DNA of 64,000 bases from a virus. The DNA is taken from positions 3,733 through 67,732 of IMG/VR virus record IMGVR_UViG_3300037119_003505. One strand, given 5' to 3'. Of the stretch, positions 9,670 to 54,508 are shown piece after piece. The position numbers and the translations under genes are program-made. The number at the start of each line of letters is the position of its first letter. The stretch's first letter is position 1. The notes under the pieces were generated by a model, which did not search any database, was not told the origin of the DNA, and saw only the letters and a program-made list of their open reading frames with translations.

Positions 9670-10403
9670 GCACCGGCCCGTGGGGGCGCACAGTGGCGGC
9701 GAAGATTCAGGAACTCGGCCACGAGTGCGAGTCGTGCAGTGCGCGCGGTGATGACTATAAGATGCTGATTCTGCGCAATGAAATCGTGTTTGTAGCCGCG
9801 CACCCTGATGTCAATGTGGCGATTGCGGAGTTTGCGATACAGAAGGGCAAGCCCGTAATTGTGGAGAAGCCGGTCGCGTTCTCCGCCACGGCTGTCAAGG
9901 CGCTGCTGACTGCGTCCATCAAGGCCAAGGTGCCGTTCATTGTGGACTACATCCATCTGTTCGACAAAGACCTCTTGAAGATTCGGGACGGCACTCCGCA
10001 CAGCATGTCGGTCGCGATGGGTGGCGACACGGTGCGGGATTACTCGTCGCTCCACGATTACGGCAGTCACGCCTTCGCGGTCGCGCTGGAGTGTTTCAAG
10101 ACCCCCGTGACGGCCATTGAGGTGCTGCACCCTGGCGAGGCGTACCGGCTACGGTTCGGTTCCGGAATGGCGGAAGTGTTTGTCGGGAACAACTGGCCTG
10201 AGAAAGTTGTGAAGGTTAGGGCCATCGGGCAGGACTGGGATTTGCTGTGGCAGGACAGCCGCCAGAACGATCCGCTCGCCGCGCTGCTGAACAAGGTCGT
10301 GGAACTGCATGAACATGGGCGCTACTGGAGCAATGGGAATCTGGCCTTTCTGGTCACGGCGCTGCTTGAGAGGCTGCACAACGAATCGCCCGTCTTGAAA
10401 TGA
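9648..10403 (+). CDS. Gfo/Idh/MocA-family oxidoreductase
   Basis: VIGTGPWG Rossmann motif, VEKPV, DYGSH. Confidence 0.82.
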   Translation: MANFCVIGTGPWGRTVAAKIQELGHECESCSARGDDYKMLILRNEIVFVAAHPDVNVAIAEFAIQKGKPVIVEKPVAFSATAVKALLTASIKAKVPFIVDYIHLFDKDLLKIRDGTPHSMSVAMGGDTVRDYSSLHDYGSHAFAVALECFKTPVTAIEVLHPGEAYRLRFGSGMAEVFVGNNWPEKVVKVRAIGQDWDLLWQDSRQNDPLAALLNKVVELHEHGRYWSNGNLAFLVTALLERLHNESPVLK

Positions 10404-27928: not shown

Positions 27929-28573
27929 TTATAGCATGAGGCTTTCAATCTCCCTTGCCAGTGCGAGAATCAGATTGCGAGTGCCGACACGCTGCTTTGA
28001 TTCACAAACCAACGCATGAAGCGCCTTCGGGAAGTCCTTTACCATCGAAGGCTGTGCGGATTGAACTTGAGTCATCTCCCCGTTGCCTCGCAGCTTCTTG
28101 TACACGATCAGCGCATTCGCCATCAGACTCGCTTTGTTGCGGTCGTTTTTGTACCGTTTCTTGACGAACTTTTTGAACTGGTGCCGATCCAGTCTTGCAA
28201 CAGCCTGAGCGATTTCCGGCGTAGCCGCCATGTGCGACTGAATCCTCTTTGGTTCTGACAGATTCGGCAGCGGCACCGCAACCATTCCGTCTCTCAGTAG
28301 CAGGACTGTTTTCTTGCGCAGTTCCAGTGGTATCCCAGCCCGTGAGATGTTGCCGATCTTGATGTGCTCCTCGATGCCTTCGTGACAACGGCGACAGAGC
28401 GGCATCAGGTCTTCGAGCGGTTCCTTAAAGATGCGGGCGTACGTCAGGTGGTGTACCTGCATCTCTTGCGCCGAGCCGCAGGCTTCGCATCGGTTGCCGC
28501 TTACGGTCATGGCGTTCAGGCGCTTCTCCTTCCACTCAGGGCTGTCCAGATAGTCTCGGTATTCTTGTGTCAT
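27929..28573 (-). CDS. HNH endonuclease
   Basis: YLDSPEWKEKR, CEAC, VHHLTY, LCRRCH. Confidence 0.85.
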   Translation of the reverse strand: MTQEYRDYLDSPEWKEKRLNAMTVSGNRCEACGSAQEMQVHHLTYARIFKEPLEDLMPLCRRCHEGIEEHIKIGNISRAGIPLELRKKTVLLLRDGMVAVPLPNLSEPKRIQSHMAATPEIAQAVARLDRHQFKKFVKKRYKNDRNKASLMANALIVYKKLRGNGEMTQVQSAQPSMVKDFPKALHALVCESKQRVGTRNLILALAREIESLML

Positions 28574-28701: not shown

Positions 28702-29052
28702 GCCCCCCGCCCCCCCCCATTGACAAGAGCAGTGAAAAACTCCTGCCGTCTCATGTAGAAACGGCAGACGTTCGCCACTTGCTGAACCGGGAGCATGCCC
28801 ATCCTTGCCGATTCCGATCACCAGCACCGAAAACAGTATCCGGGCCGATCACCGCCTGAGTATCGGGCTCGTTGCCGTTGCCGAGAAGCATCGGGGCAAA
28901 GAAAAACCCGCTCAATGGTAGCACACGGCGGGTTCTTCCTATGCAGTTTCTCGGCTGCCAAGCATTCGGGCTATTCGCCCAAAGTATGAAAGTTTTTTCG
29001 TCGCGTGCTACTGCGATACCGCCACTCTGCCGCAGCATCCGCACGGGCGCAA
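28702..29052 (-). ncRNA. Structured ncRNA cassette E1 (promoter, attenuator module, conserved 3' module, terminator)
   Basis: TTGCGC-N17-CAGAGT promoter at 29052-29024; hairpins; aligns over about 170 nt with 49000-49162. Confidence 0.6.
28898..28934 (-). terminator. Intrinsic terminator/attenuator of cassette E1
   Basis: AACCCGC...GCGGGTT stem followed by TTTCTTT. Confidence 0.6.
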
Positions 29053-29208
29053 GAACTTTCTTTGGAAACTTTCAGCGCTTCCCGAGCAACAGATCCCACT
29101 CCGGAAACCCGAACCGGTTCTCGATGGTGGGACGCTGGCGACGATTCCGTTTGACGGCAGCGGGCGGCTGTGCGAAACGGGAAGTCCACGCTCGGTAACG
29201 CCGAGCAC

Positions 29209-47852: not shown

Positions 47853-48208
47853 ATTACGATCTCACGACACCTTGCGGCCTGTGCCCGTTCCGAAATGATG
47901 CGAAGCGACTGCACGTGTCCGCAGATCGGTTAGCCGAGATGGCGAGCGGCGAGTTCTGCTGCCACAAGACCACGGAAGCCGATGACGAGACAGGATCGTA
48001 TGCGCCAAAGCCTGATTCGCAGCACTGTGCCGGGGCGCTCATATTTCTTGAAGCGCAGGATCGCCCTCACCAAATGATGAGGATTTGCGAACGTCTCGGG
48101 ATGTACGATCGTAAGAAGCTGGACATGACGGCCCCGGTGTTCGGCTCGCTAGCAGAGGTGCGGCGCGCAGATCGGAAGCCTCGCAAATCCAAACAACCCA
48201 CACCATGA
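47849..48208 (+). CDS. Cys-rich conserved-type phage protein
   Basis: PCGLCPFR, FCCHKT, HCAGA. Confidence 0.65.
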   Translation: MNYDLTTPCGLCPFRNDAKRLHVSADRLAEMASGEFCCHKTTEADDETGSYAPKPDSQHCAGALIFLEAQDRPHQMMRICERLGMYDRKKLDMTAPVFGSLAEVRRADRKPRKSKQPTP

Positions 48209-48582
48209 ACCCCGACCTACAAGCCAAGCTGGCAGCCATCCGCACCGAACTGAACCGCACCATCGAACTCGACGGCAAGAGGACGACTGGCGAGTGGCAA
48301 GTCACGGACGGAACGGTTTGGGACGAGAACGGATGCGCGGTCGTATCGGACTACAGCGCAGACACGTCCGCCTTCATCGCGCACGCCTCCCAGTTCAGCG
48401 CCGTCACCGCCAAGGCGCTGCTGCGGGCGCTGGACGGGCTGGAGCGGGAAGCTACGCTTGGGATTCACCTCACCATGTCGTGCGCGTATGGGCGGCTGCT
48501 GCACGAGGACTGTCACAAGTGCGTTGCTGTCGCGGCCCTGCAAGCGATCTGCGAGCTGTGGCCGAAGCTGGAGGCGGCGTAA
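48205..48582 (+). CDS. Ead/Ea22-like protein
   Basis: TTGEWQV...AFIAHA...ALLRAL. Confidence 0.5.
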   Translation: MNPDLQAKLAAIRTELNRTIELDGKRTTGEWQVTDGTVWDENGCAVVSDYSADTSAFIAHASQFSAVTAKALLRALDGLEREATLGIHLTMSCAYGRLLHEDCHKCVAVAALQAICELWPKLEAA

Positions 48583-48590
48583 AAAAGTGC

Positions 48591-49162
48591 TTGCAACGAG
48601 GATTCGATTGCGCTTCTGTGCGGCGTTCGCAGGTGAATTGCGAGCGACGAAACTTTTTGAATTTGTCAACAGCCGCAAGGCCGAGACAGAAGGTTGCGGA
48701 ACCAAATAATCCGAGCGCCGCTGTGATTCACCCACAGCGGCGTTTTCTTTTTCCGACTAGCGGGAAGGATGTTCTTTGAAATTCAGGAGTTGTGAAATCT
48801 GCGCGCGTCCGATTGGCGGTTACACCCGGTCGCGATTGATGGCGGAAAACGCAAACTAGAAACGGGCGCAGGTCGCGTATATGTGCGCGGCAACCTCTCC
48901 AAGCCGGAGGTTCACCGTTTATGAGGATACCATCGGCCAACCCAAAACCATCCTTCTCCTGAATTTCAACGAGCATCCTTCAGCGCCTCAGAAAGACGCC
49001 GATACTGGCGCGGACGTATCGGCTTCGCTACTGCTGCGAGTGCTGGTGATCGGAGCACGCAGGGACAGACCTACCTACCGGCTCGCACGTGGCAGAACGT
49101 CTGCCGTTTCCAACGAGACGGCAGGAGTTTTCTCACTTGCTCTCTCTTGGGGGGCGGGGGGC
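48591..49162 (+). ncRNA. Structured ncRNA cassette E2 (promoter, attenuator, boxA-stem-enclosed cloverleaf, conserved 3' module, terminator)
   Basis: TTGCAA-N17-TTCTGT promoter; multiple stems; no downstream sense gene (meets convergent operon); homologous to E1. Confidence 0.7.
48716..48752 (+). terminator. Intrinsic terminator/attenuator of cassette E2
   Basis: Perfect 10-bp stem CGCCGCTGTG/CACAGCGGCG, loop ATTCACC, TTTTCTTTTT tail. Confidence 0.8.
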
Positions 49163-49320
49163 CAGCTCTTTTAATTATCACTTATCCGGCGGGGCTTCGG
49201 GCGGGACAGGGCGGTGGCGAGAGTGAGCCTTGCGAACGGGTCGCCGAGGCGGGTCACTGGTAGCCTGTCGCCGTACAGCCGAGGCAGCCGATCCGTAGCC
49301 GTAGCCGTCACCGCCCCGCC

Positions 49321-52591: not shown

Positions 52592-54508
52592 TTAGTCATG
52601 TCTCTTTCTCTGTTTGGGTTTGTAAGAACTGTCGCCTTCAACGCGCTTGGCTTCTTTCTCGCCGGCTAGAATGCCTTTGTCGGCAAAGACGCATGTCAGC
52701 GGGTTGAAAAAGAATAGGTATGCTTTTTTGGCGATGTTGCGCCCTTTCACGACGCGCGCGATCATGTGGCTTTCCTCGCCTTCCTCCAGCGCAATCACCG
52801 TATGGGCGTCGTGGCCGATGGCGCGGGATTCTCGGAGCTTTCCCTCTTCGTTTAACTGGCTCACAGCGATCACCGGCACGTTGCATTCCTTCGCCAACGC
52901 CTTGAGCGCACGGCTGATTCCCGCAACCTGTTGCTCACGGGTTTCTCGATCTCCTGTCGTGTCCACAAGTTGCGCGTAGTCCACCACTATCAGCCGGATG
53001 TCCTGCTGCGCACAGAGAGCCACAGATTCCGAGCGGATGTCGGCGCAGGTGTGATACGGATCGTCGAACACCCACAGCGGCAGCTTGGCAATCTCTGGCG
53101 ACCTGTCGCGAATGAGGTTCTGATCTAGTTCGCTGAACTTTCCGGTGTTGAAGACGTTTCGGTTGATGCCCGCGTTCATGGAAAACAACAGGTCGGTGAT
53201 CTCCTCTTCCGTCATTTCCAGCGTAAAGAGCGCCACCCCTTCACCGCGCCTCACCACGGCGTTTACGATGTTGAGCGTGAAGGAACTTTTCCCCACGTTG
53301 GTTTGCGCCGACACGACGATGAAGTTGCCTTTCTTCAATCCACCCGTCTCGGCGTCGAATGTCTTGAATCCCGTCATCAGATTCGGGGCGTCCTGATTCT
53401 TGAACAGAAACTCGTACCGCTGGATCGCGTCCACGACCAAGCGACGCATCGGCAGCGCGGAGATCAGCGGCACTTCCAGACGCTTCAGCAGCAACGCCAC
53501 TCCCGCAATGTCCAAAGCGACGCAATCAGGATTCAGATACAACATCCGCTGAAGCCCGTCCCCGCCTGTCTTGATGCTGCGAACCGCGCCAGGAAGCCGC
53601 GTCAGCCGCGACGGATTCTTGTTCCCTCGGTCGAATCCGAACGGAAATAGCGCGTCCAGCAACGCGCCAGAGAGGTCAGAAAATTCCTTGGCGCTATCCG
53701 CCTTCAGCCTCACGAGCGCGTGGGCGCTTTTGTCGCCACTGGCCGTCACGCACGCAACAGGGATGCCGAGCTTCGTGAACATCGAAAGCTGAACCTCTAT
53801 CGGGAGATCGTCACTCTCGACCAGCACGTGCCGGAACTTCGCCACATCAGCGTCGGTTGTCGCGCCATCCTTTCCAGTTCCAAGCGCGGCCACGGGATTG
53901 AGTCGGACCCACGCCCCAGCCGAGGACTGTGGCACGCCTTGGCTGGTGAACCATTCCACCCAATCCGAACATGGGAGCGTCTTGCCAGCGCCTTGCGGCG
54001 CGGCCTTGCCGTCCTCCTTGAGAAAATACTTCGTGATGATGTTCAGCCGATCATCCGGTTCAAAAATCCGCGTGAACATGGAAGCTCCTGCGGCGTGCTT
54101 CTCTGGAATCGGAACGGGGCTGCCAGCGATGAAGTCCTCCAAGCTTGTGCGGTAGCCGTCCAGCCACCATTCCGCCTGTCCTGTGCGTTGCTCTGGCGTG
54201 GCTGTCCTTGCGGCCTGCGGAGCAATAGGGGCTGTCTTGGCGCGTTTCGCGGCTCTCGGCGCGCTGGCTGTGCCGTAGCCGCTCGGCGCTGGGTTCTTTC
54301 GAACCGCTCCTTCAACCAAGTCGCGGATCTCCTTGTCTGGAATGTCTGGCGAATTGAATCGCTCTCGCAACAGGCTGAACACCATCTCGGTCGGCCACTG
54401 GTTTCCGATCAGCGAAAAGGAAATTTCCTTCATCACAGTATGCCGAGTACCGTTGACGGGATGCGCGTCAAGCAACTGCTGCGTCTTGTCTGGAATGTAA
54501 TAGTTCAC
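52592..54508 (-). CDS. AEP-type primase fused to DnaB-like (SF4) replicative helicase
   Basis: Primase motifs LVESD, SGDKSAH, NPSRLTRLPG; helicase SAQTNVGKS, FTLEM, IVVDYAQL, SQLN, LRESRAIGHDA. Confidence 0.85.
   Translation of the reverse strand: MNYYIPDKTQQLLDAHPVNGTRHTVMKEISFSLIGNQWPTEMVFSLLRERFNSPDIPDKEIRDLVEGAVRKNPAPSGYGTASAPRAAKRAKTAPIAPQAARTATPEQRTGQAEWWLDGYRTSLEDFIAGSPVPIPEKHAAGASMFTRIFEPDDRLNIITKYFLKEDGKAAPQGAGKTLPCSDWVEWFTSQGVPQSSAGAWVRLNPVAALGTGKDGATTDADVAKFRHVLVESDDLPIEVQLSMFTKLGIPVACVTASGDKSAHALVRLKADSAKEFSDLSGALLDALFPFGFDRGNKNPSRLTRLPGAVRSIKTGGDGLQRMLYLNPDCVALDIAGVALLLKRLEVPLISALPMRRLVVDAIQRYEFLFKNQDAPNLMTGFKTFDAETGGLKKGNFIVVSAQTNVGKSSFTLNIVNAVVRRGEGVALFTLEMTEEEITDLLFSMNAGINRNVFNTGKFSELDQNLIRDRSPEIAKLPLWVFDDPYHTCADIRSESVALCAQQDIRLIVVDYAQLVDTTGDRETREQQVAGISRALKALAKECNVPVIAVSQLNEEGKLRESRAIGHDAHTVIALEEGEESHMIARVVKGRNIAKKAYLFFFNPLTCVFADKGILAGEKEAKRVEGDSSYKPKQRKRHD

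Follow-up and report, generated by a model that had tools for sequence, protein, structure and literature searches.

Why should the loop of a short 5′ hairpin be the exact complement of the loop of a predicted terminator farther along the same strand, twice in one phage genome and each time in different letters? The question is raised by a 64-kb window (the whole stretch of DNA analyzed here), which comprises bases 3733–67732 of a 74,062-bp virus record of the IMG/VR type, estimated to be 94% complete. The phage has a GC content of 59%, and soil metagenome DNA runs are the only sequencing runs in which the stretch was found, with no RNA run listed. Few proteins encoded in the window match known phage families, and just two nameable genes lie near the elements in question, one for an HNH endonuclease (27929–28573, minus strand) and one for a primase-helicase (52592–54508, minus strand).

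Two paralogous elements of about 125 nt each, E1 (about 29017–28898, minus strand) and E2 (about 48624–48752, plus strand), have the same order of parts: a promoter-like motif, a hairpin (HP1), a variable middle and an intrinsic terminator (T1). In both cases the cassette runs on to a second terminator, T2. The individual features are given below, with hairpin loops in parentheses.

29024–29066, minus strand: promoter-like motif of E1, an A/T-rich stretch with a −35-like TTGCGC (29052–29047), a 17-nt spacer and CAGAGT (29029–29024).
29001–29016, minus strand: HP1 of E1, TCGC(AGTAGCAC)GCGA, from sequence reading, a fold and a descriptor match; its 7-nt code, GTAGCAC, is at 29011–29005.
28935–29000, minus strand: middle region of E1, from folds, an A-rich linker with ACUUU..ACUUUG, a hairpin GGGC-GAAUA-GCCC and another small hairpin.
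28898–28934, minus strand: T1 of E1, from sequence reading, a fold and a descriptor match, AACCCGC(CGTGTGCTACCATTGA)GCGGGTT at 28934–28905, then TTTTCTTT, with the U-tract TTTTTCTTT; its code, GTGCTAC, is at 28924–28918.
28742–28768, minus strand: T2 of E1, from a terminator scan, TCTGCCGTTTC-TACAT-GAGACGGCAGG plus a T-run, near-identical to T2 of E2 and the end of the E1 cassette.
27929–28573, minus strand: HNH endonuclease gene (214 aa), downstream of the E1 cassette, matching PHROG HNH families (E 6e-11).
48581–48619, plus strand: promoter-like motif of E2, AAAAAAGTG, with a −35-like TTGCAA (48591–48596), a 17-nt spacer and TTCTGT (48614–48619).
48624–48646, plus strand: HP1 of E2, CGTTCGCA(GGTGAAT)TGCGAGCG, from sequence reading, folds and the descriptor; loop at 48632–48638.
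48647–48712, plus strand: middle region of E2, from a fold, the linker ACUUUUUGAAU, a two-tier hairpin UUUGUC..GCC-GCAA-GGC..GACAGA and a hairpin GGUU-GCGGA-AACC.
48713–48752, plus strand: T1 of E2, from a terminator scan, GAGCGCCGCTGTG(ATTCACC)CACAGCGGCGTTT, hairpin at 48713–48745, loop at 48726–48732, U-tract TTTTCTTTTT.
49100–49133, plus strand: T2 of E2, TCTGCCGTTTC-CAAC-GAGACGGCAGG plus a T-run, the end of the E2 cassette, in the intergenic region between convergent genes.

E1 occupies a 966-nt gap with small minus-strand genes on one side and the HNH gene on the other, and an additional non-coding module of about 130 nt lies between its T1 and T2. The HNH protein scored just under the family cutoff of the Pfam HNH model (E 5e-4; 20.5 bits, cutoff 21.4), and its gene is followed by those for two larger proteins, one of 587 aa that is conserved among related phages and one of 2505 aa. 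The promoter-like motif of E2 begins directly after the stop of a 125-aa ORF (48205–48582). E2 closes a plus-strand operon opposite convergent genes; no gene, HNH or other, follows it on its strand. Its HP1 and T1 are 66 nt apart; the HP1 stem has a single U-G pair, consistent with a plus-strand RNA, and the terminator scan reported 13 pairs (eight of them GC) and a loop of 7 nt for T1, the hairpin energy of which is −21.9 kcal/mol, compared with −10.9 kcal/mol for T1 of E1. The module after T1, T2 and the following G-run are 72% identical between E2 and E1 over 231 nt, with an extra long-stem module in E2, and E2 is a diverged duplicate of E1.

The initial annotation had pointed out, from the sequence alone, that the 7-mers of the two hairpins are exact reverse complements in each cassette, and direct reading of the sequence bore this out for both E1 and E2. 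Its placement of the 7-mers as the loops themselves stood for E2, where both loops are 7 nt, but not for E1, where the loops are 8 and 16 nt and the 7-mer lies inside the larger loop. It had further proposed that the complementarity is selected at the RNA level, and homologs are in agreement: three other phages each supply one more element whose 7-nt match is perfect and in new letters (ATTAGGG/CCCTAAT, ATACGAC/GTCGTAT, and GTTCAGT/ACTGAAC), so that the covariation predicted by that proposal is present. The family thereby comprises five members in four phages, two in the window phage and one in each of the others.

The first of these homologs, E1′ (L004:7945–8134), belongs to G001, a related 78.5-kb phage reached via the 587-aa protein downstream of E1 (49% identity), and occupies a place syntenic to E1. 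Its HP1 is TCGCG(ATTAGGG)CGCGA, its T1 loop contains CCCTAAT, the match between the two extends to 13 nt, and the element is followed by both downstream modules plus an HNH gene. A third phage (L151, a 66-kb Logan contig), reached via HNH homologs, has an element with the HP1 TCGCG(ATACGAC)CGCGA and the T1 GCCGCTGGAG(GTCGTAT)CTCCGGCGGC-TTTTTCTTTT. Here just 4 nt separate the end of the T1 U-tract from the ATG of the HNH gene, and the N-terminus of this HNH protein aligns with that of the window HNH protein. The fourth phage (L251) was found with the pattern TCGCA-N7-TGCGA, which joins the conserved HP1 stem to a U-tract requirement; its element (L251:9769–9893) has the loops GTTCAGT (9774–9780) and ACTGAAC (9869–9875) and is followed by a long-stem module without an HNH gene, and no protein common to this phage and the window was detectable within the 14.8-kb L251 locus. 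Same-strand modules lie 3′ of T1 in E1, E2, E1′ and the L251 element, and T2 was identified in the first three of these. Within the window phage and the L151 phage the elements are invariant across the loci compared: three other contigs of the window phage were 100% identical across E1, as were four L151 loci across theirs.

Several further features recur around the elements. After T2, both cassettes of the window phage (28768–28690, minus strand; 49100–49185, plus strand) have a G-run (GGGGGGCGGGGGG-like) followed by TTTTAAwwATCACTT, and G001 has a similar G-run and TTTTAAGTGATC upstream of its HNH gene. The long stem of E2 (48765–48980), with a boxA-like GTTCTTTGAA in its left arm, has counterparts in G001 (L004:8186–8318, a 22-bp stem with the same boxA-like motif that encloses about 88 nt) and in L251 (L251:10114–10220, an analogous stem of 18 bp). 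In G001 the 11-mer CGCGATTAGGG of the E1′ hairpin occurs again 1.3 kb downstream (L004:9482–9492), antisense to the junction of the 5′ leader and acceptor stem of a phage tRNA-Met (L004:9411–9486, minus strand); this overlap may be a coincidence, as chance matches of similar length are present in G001.

Across the five elements, with five unrelated 7-mers, 35/35 pairs between the two loops are Watson-Crick, and double-sided changes occur at 7/7 positions. Both loops are exactly 7 nt in E2 and in the L151 and L251 elements, and the HP1 stem (UCGCR/YGCGA) is conserved around a hypervariable loop of about 7 nt. These pairs were tabulated with our own scripts; a MAFFT alignment (A4) misplaced HP1 of the L151 element. 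In simulations using genome base composition and the real loop sizes, the chance of a match for the four elements simulated was 1.4e-3 for E1, 8e-5 for E2, 5e-4 for E1′, and 7e-5 for the L151 element; the L251 element has the same 7/7 loop sizes. A descriptor requiring a hairpin with a 7–8 nt loop and, at most about 160 nt on, a GC-rich hairpin plus T-run with the complement in its loop was run over two complete phage genomes plus seven other loci, where its only matches were E1, E2, E1′ and the L151 element; it gave 0 matches in 1.44 Mb of control DNA from unrelated metagenome loci. The complementarity is not due to chance. The claim that each cassette is insulated by a code of its own was also upheld in the calculated energies: in the window genome the cognate duplexes reach −7.4 and −10.2 kcal/mol vs. 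+0.6 and −4.6 kcal/mol for the cross pairs, and in the family as a whole cognate loop duplexes range from −7.0 to −10.2 kcal/mol, with non-cognate ones mostly weaker than −2.5 kcal/mol.

Minimum free energy folds gave HP1 and T1 in 4/4 elements folded (E1, E2, E1′ and that of L151), and the T1 hairpin with its U-tract was called by our own scans in 5/5, with energies from −10.9 to −23.1 kcal/mol for the four computed. The GC-rich hairpin followed by a U-tract is what defines an intrinsic (Rho-independent) terminator, and T1 is predicted to be one. A core motif of the E1 middle is common to E2, E1′ and the L251 element, and the latter three share ACUUU..UUUG and a two-tier hairpin capped by GCAA, the pairing of which is kept via compensatory changes in E1′ and L251 (sequences compared by hand). 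Since the E1 middle differs and that of the L151 element is unrelated, HP1, T1 and their match appear to be the core of the element. No small ORF inside the element is conserved, and a hammerhead-type core is absent from the sequence.

G-U pairs occur in the HP1 and T1 stems and the U-tract is one-sided, so the feature is probably one of RNA transcribed from the strand given for each element. This bears on a reading in which the 7-mers act in DNA or have no function, i.e., as inverted repeats for a recombinase or a DNA-binding protein or as relics of template switching, with HP1 as an operator palindrome (TCGCR-N7-YGCGA). A palindrome around a variable 7-bp spacer, spanning about +1 to +17 relative to a putative promoter, would be in the classic operator position, and copying might produce a match as long as the 13 nt of E1′. 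However, the arms around the two 7-mers are unrelated and the second 7-mer lacks palindromic flanks in E1 and E1′, so these are not paired recombination sites; six further contigs with an identical HNH protein include no inverted form (the three compared were identical across the E1 region), the one-sided T-runs and G-U pairs are features of RNA, and five independent perfect matches with zero mismatches argue for selection on pairing. We consider a DNA-level role or a lack of function highly improbable, and a selected RNA loop–loop contact is well supported by the family comparison.

What kind of contact this would be can be judged against known RNAs. RNA I and RNA II of ColE1 meet through 7-nt loops, which form a 7-bp loop–loop helix with the stems intact, and loop changes give rise to new specificities. 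The continuous loop complementarity of 6–7 nt that characterizes such kissing is present in the predicted loops of all five elements (7/7 pairs). ColE1 partners, however, come from opposite strands, which makes their complementarity automatic, whereas both loops of the element are on one strand and in one RNA, 70–100 nt apart and joined by a linker of 50–75 nt between the hairpins; their complementarity must therefore be kept by selection. The initial annotation had allowed for either a kiss or strand invasion. The 7-bp loop–loop match agrees with the former, but the latter is not favored, because the match ends at the loop boundary in 4/5 elements (7 nt; 9 nt in L151), and the stems are not mutually complementary. 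A closing helix or antiterminator pairing of the 5′ flank with a T1 arm appeared in single folds only and is not conserved.

The same boundary separates the element from the closest published system that we found, the zipper-type attenuator cATT of plasmid pLS20 (Gonzalez-Alvarez et al., NAR 2026, PMC13401043), a 456-nt leader ahead of the first genes of an operon. As described there, cATT is likewise a leader of a mobile element in which an upstream stem-loop is complementary to an intrinsic terminator, and this complementarity decides termination in cATT (PMC13401043). In cATT (PMC13401043) the arms pair and extend a long central stem into an antiterminator, whereas only the 7-nt apical loops match here: HP1 arms are not complementary to T1 arms, there is no long central stem, the leader is about 120 nt, and a match that ends at the loop boundary in 4/5 elements is not a zipper of that kind.

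An A/T-rich stretch followed by a −35-like CTTGCG or TTGACC precedes 5/5 elements, and its conservation suggests that this motif is a promoter; a consensus promoter scan did not call it upstream of E1 or E2. HP1 starts 36–40 nt past the start of the −35-like hexamer in 4/5 elements and 49 nt past it in E1′, a spacing that, if the motif is a promoter, would put HP1 at the transcript's 5′ end or close to it. The same motif precedes one other small unit in G001. At L005:1504–1660 of that phage (about 65540) GGGAGG comes after the promoter-like motif GAAAGTTCTTGCGC, then a two-codon ORF (ATG CAC TAA) and finally a strong terminator; the kissing design is absent. Small proteins with sigma-70 region 4 are encoded near homologs of the 587-aa protein or the primase-helicase (L023:370–1074 and L150:7956–8255), and a phage sigma-like factor could recognize the conserved −35-like motif.

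Our preferred reading, to which we assign a probability of roughly 0.5 as a whole, is that E1 and E2 are members of an undescribed family of short phage RNAs (about 110–135 nt) acting as promoter-proximal terminator gates, or attenuators. HP1, at or near the transcription start, would be the first hairpin to form; the T1 loop carries its exact complement, and the two loops could make a 7-bp kiss within one RNA. By docking on the T1 loop as that loop emerges, HP1 would set the ratio of stopping at T1 to read-through and so tune termination, up or down. The promoter, the 5′ end, the physical kiss and any effect on termination are the parts of this scheme that we infer. A gate is suggested by the placement of the unit between the promoter-like motif and a same-strand payload, which would be the HNH gene, the non-coding modules, or both.

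The L151 element provides the strongest single argument for T1 as a gate beyond a mere end. With the T1 U-tract ending 4 nt before the aligned ATG, the L151 HNH gene can be transcribed only through T1, an arrangement that favors gating. E1 and E1′ also precede HNH genes, which supports the gate reading, so that HNH homologs lie downstream of E1, E1′ and the L151 element. In lambdoid phages a short terminated RNA directly after its promoter (PR′–6S RNA–tR′, with the antiterminator Q) likewise lies ahead of the late genes, which need read-through, and E1 and E1′ resemble that unit in their placement ahead of an HNH gene and the virion gene block. Loop–loop complementarity is absent from lambda 6S RNA, and E2 and the L251 element, unlike the lambdoid unit, are not ahead of late genes. 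No antiterminator annotation was found among about 20 window proteins scanned.

Several points weigh against a gate, among them the small family of only five members. On a simple view, a kiss of two intact hairpins needs a folded T1 and hence comes after the termination decision. Each element also lies directly 3′ of a same-strand ORF or ORF-like frame and could be a 3′ UTR or an intercistronic segment, and a purely intramolecular contact leaves the fast turnover of loops on a fixed stem unexplained. Because complementary 7-nt loops can kiss with both stems intact, the contact does not by itself block the terminator; the predicted 7-bp kiss is compatible with an intact terminator and, instead of serving as the antitermination switch proposed in the initial annotation, could equally aid termination or act after release. 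For E2 a gene-gating role is inapplicable, as no gene lies downstream on its strand.

With nothing to gate on its strand, E2 at the end of its operon is more readily accommodated if the kiss forms after release and ties the 5′ hairpin to the 3′ terminator hairpin in a compact, nuclease-resistant small RNA. Such an RNA would owe its real function to another part, such as the GCAA hairpin or the conserved single-stranded ACUUU..UUUG linker, and the kiss would have no role in termination. Both loops are in the terminal hairpins of the predicted product, and the middle has the conserved motifs and the hairpin kept by compensatory changes noted above from hand comparison. But in the L151 element the middle is not conserved while HP1, T1 and the kiss are, so the kiss looks like the core and not an accessory, and such a structural role leaves the fast turnover of codes without explanation; we regard it as unlikely.

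Complementary loops may also pair between molecules. In the packaging RNA of phi29 two complementary loops, which vary between phages, form a 4-nt intermolecular pairing that builds a ring on the portal, and loops of bicoid mRNA pair between molecules as well. If the loops of the element paired head to tail, dimers or closed rings would result; complementary loops in one RNA, with sequences that covary and differ between related phages, are the signature of phi29-type pRNA, and the HNH gene and virion block lie downstream of both E1 and E1′. Against this, a linker of 50–75 nt suffices for an intramolecular contact, E2 and the L251 element do not adjoin virion or packaging genes, and no packaging ATPase was identified nearby. 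Phi29 pRNA has a three-way junction and no terminator; no Rfam match to such an RNA was obtained at gathering or E-value thresholds, and no searched protein had a phi29-type function in this phage, whose genome is 74 kb. Homo-oligomerization is accordingly judged very unlikely.

The turnover of codes on a fixed stem is what would be expected if the RNA recognized its own kind in trans. The RNA released at T1 would use one loop or both to pair with other transcripts of its cassette, either nascent leaders or read-through mRNAs carrying the same two loops, and alter termination, translation or RNase III cleavage; it would be an antisense-type regulator from the same strand as its target, with the 7-mer as an address of specificity (“immunity” or “incompatibility”). 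Specificity determinants under diversifying selection typically combine a conserved stem with hypervariable loops, and intramolecular tertiary contacts usually behave otherwise. Moreover, the two paralogs of the window genome are orthogonal in the duplex energies given above, and a partner bound at T1 of the L151 element, which abuts the HNH start codon, could affect translation.

Precedents for same-strand pairing exist in P4 CI and P1/P7 c4 RNAs, in which same-strand complementary segments of one leader (seqB with seqA/seqC in P4 CI) control downstream termination or translation and covary between heteroimmune relatives as a specificity code. RNase P cuts these RNAs out of a longer leader; they adopt a cloverleaf-like fold and act on two flanking sites. 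The element shares with them covarying same-strand segments in a phage leader, with five codes here, a likeness of logic and not of membership; it differs in its pairing partners, two loops, one in a 5′ hairpin and one in the element's own terminator. The Rfam C4 family had no match in the window at gathering level, nor in the two cassettes and the G001 locus at E up to 10. Pairing at the terminator loops of sRNAs is also known (PMC11979758), which lends some support to recognition in trans. Yet each loop of a free molecule would already be taken up by its partner, trans binding probably cannot keep pace with the brief interval in which T1 folds, and additional target sites are not above chance, with extra 7-mer copies in the genomes at chance frequency and none in hairpin loops. 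The suggestion in the initial annotation that an RNA or protein might toggle the switch from outside found no evidence, and we hold recognition in trans to be possible but doubtful.

Searches for further members were mostly negative. No more copies were found in the window genome by BLAST, and nhmmer returned only E1, E2 and E1′; BLAST gave no match in GenBank phages. The 125-aa ORF and the primase-helicase as IMG/VR queries yielded no relatives, three primase-helicase contigs had no element, and it was absent from those of four more contigs with the 587-aa protein that have readable DNA. The best HNH match (P0068, 61% identity; a 53-kb contig, Logan SRR12927082) has a 157-nt gap upstream of its gene, and neither the HNH loci in IMG/VR and bacterial genomes nor L215 and L216 contained an element. 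The core motif pattern found only G001 in IMG/VR, and none of the 120 matches listed for metagenomes was true; the pattern TCGCG-N7-CGCGA gave no member, and a last pattern scan gave nothing new.

These scans also brought up leaders of other kinds. L166:6134–6253 (plus strand), L185 and L272 (both minus strand) represent a separate leader family with a TTGACG-type promoter and the hairpin TCGCR(TYGGAAR)YGCGA, in which the complement of the 5′ arm plus loop, 9–11 nt exact (12 nt with one mismatch), lies just before the terminator. A single compensatory change (T>C with A>G) separates L166 from L185, and these two leaders had no Rfam match at gathering level. An AT-rich phage (one element in the four IMG/VR contigs L261, L279, L314 and L336) has TCGCA(AAATCTA)TGCGA and, 9 nt on, a second, small hairpin with the complementary loop TAGATTT. 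Among 104 pattern matches, four distinct elements have a downstream 7-nt complement vs. about 0.5 expected by chance.

Attenuators and kissing-loop RNAs are each known, and Rfam contains no leader in which a terminator loop itself covaries with the loop of a 5′ hairpin. The whole 64-kb window had 0 Rfam matches at gathering level, and in E-value mode (E up to 10) the best scores for both cassettes and the G001 locus were 11–20 bits vs. thresholds of 37–93. A literature search found no description of a leader whose terminator loop covaries with its 5′ hairpin loop.

If the contact controls termination, the element would be a gate of about 120 nt that is compact, needs no ligand and is readily re-addressed, and its five codes on one conserved scaffold would form a natural set of orthogonal parts. 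It would also help to explain how phages in which few regulators are recognizable time the expression of late genes and of an HNH nuclease that may be toxic. We advance only tentatively, and with more doubt than belief, the broader idea that these elements belong to an undescribed and widespread class of phage gates, in which a hypervariable 7-nt address in the 5′-terminal hairpin is matched by the gate’s own terminator loop and the short RNA serves as a same-strand antisense regulator. If true, this would be sense–sense pairing through two kissing loops on the RNA’s own read-through transcripts, giving each cassette and each phage a private regulatory channel, much like plasmid incompatibility or the specificity of phage immunity.
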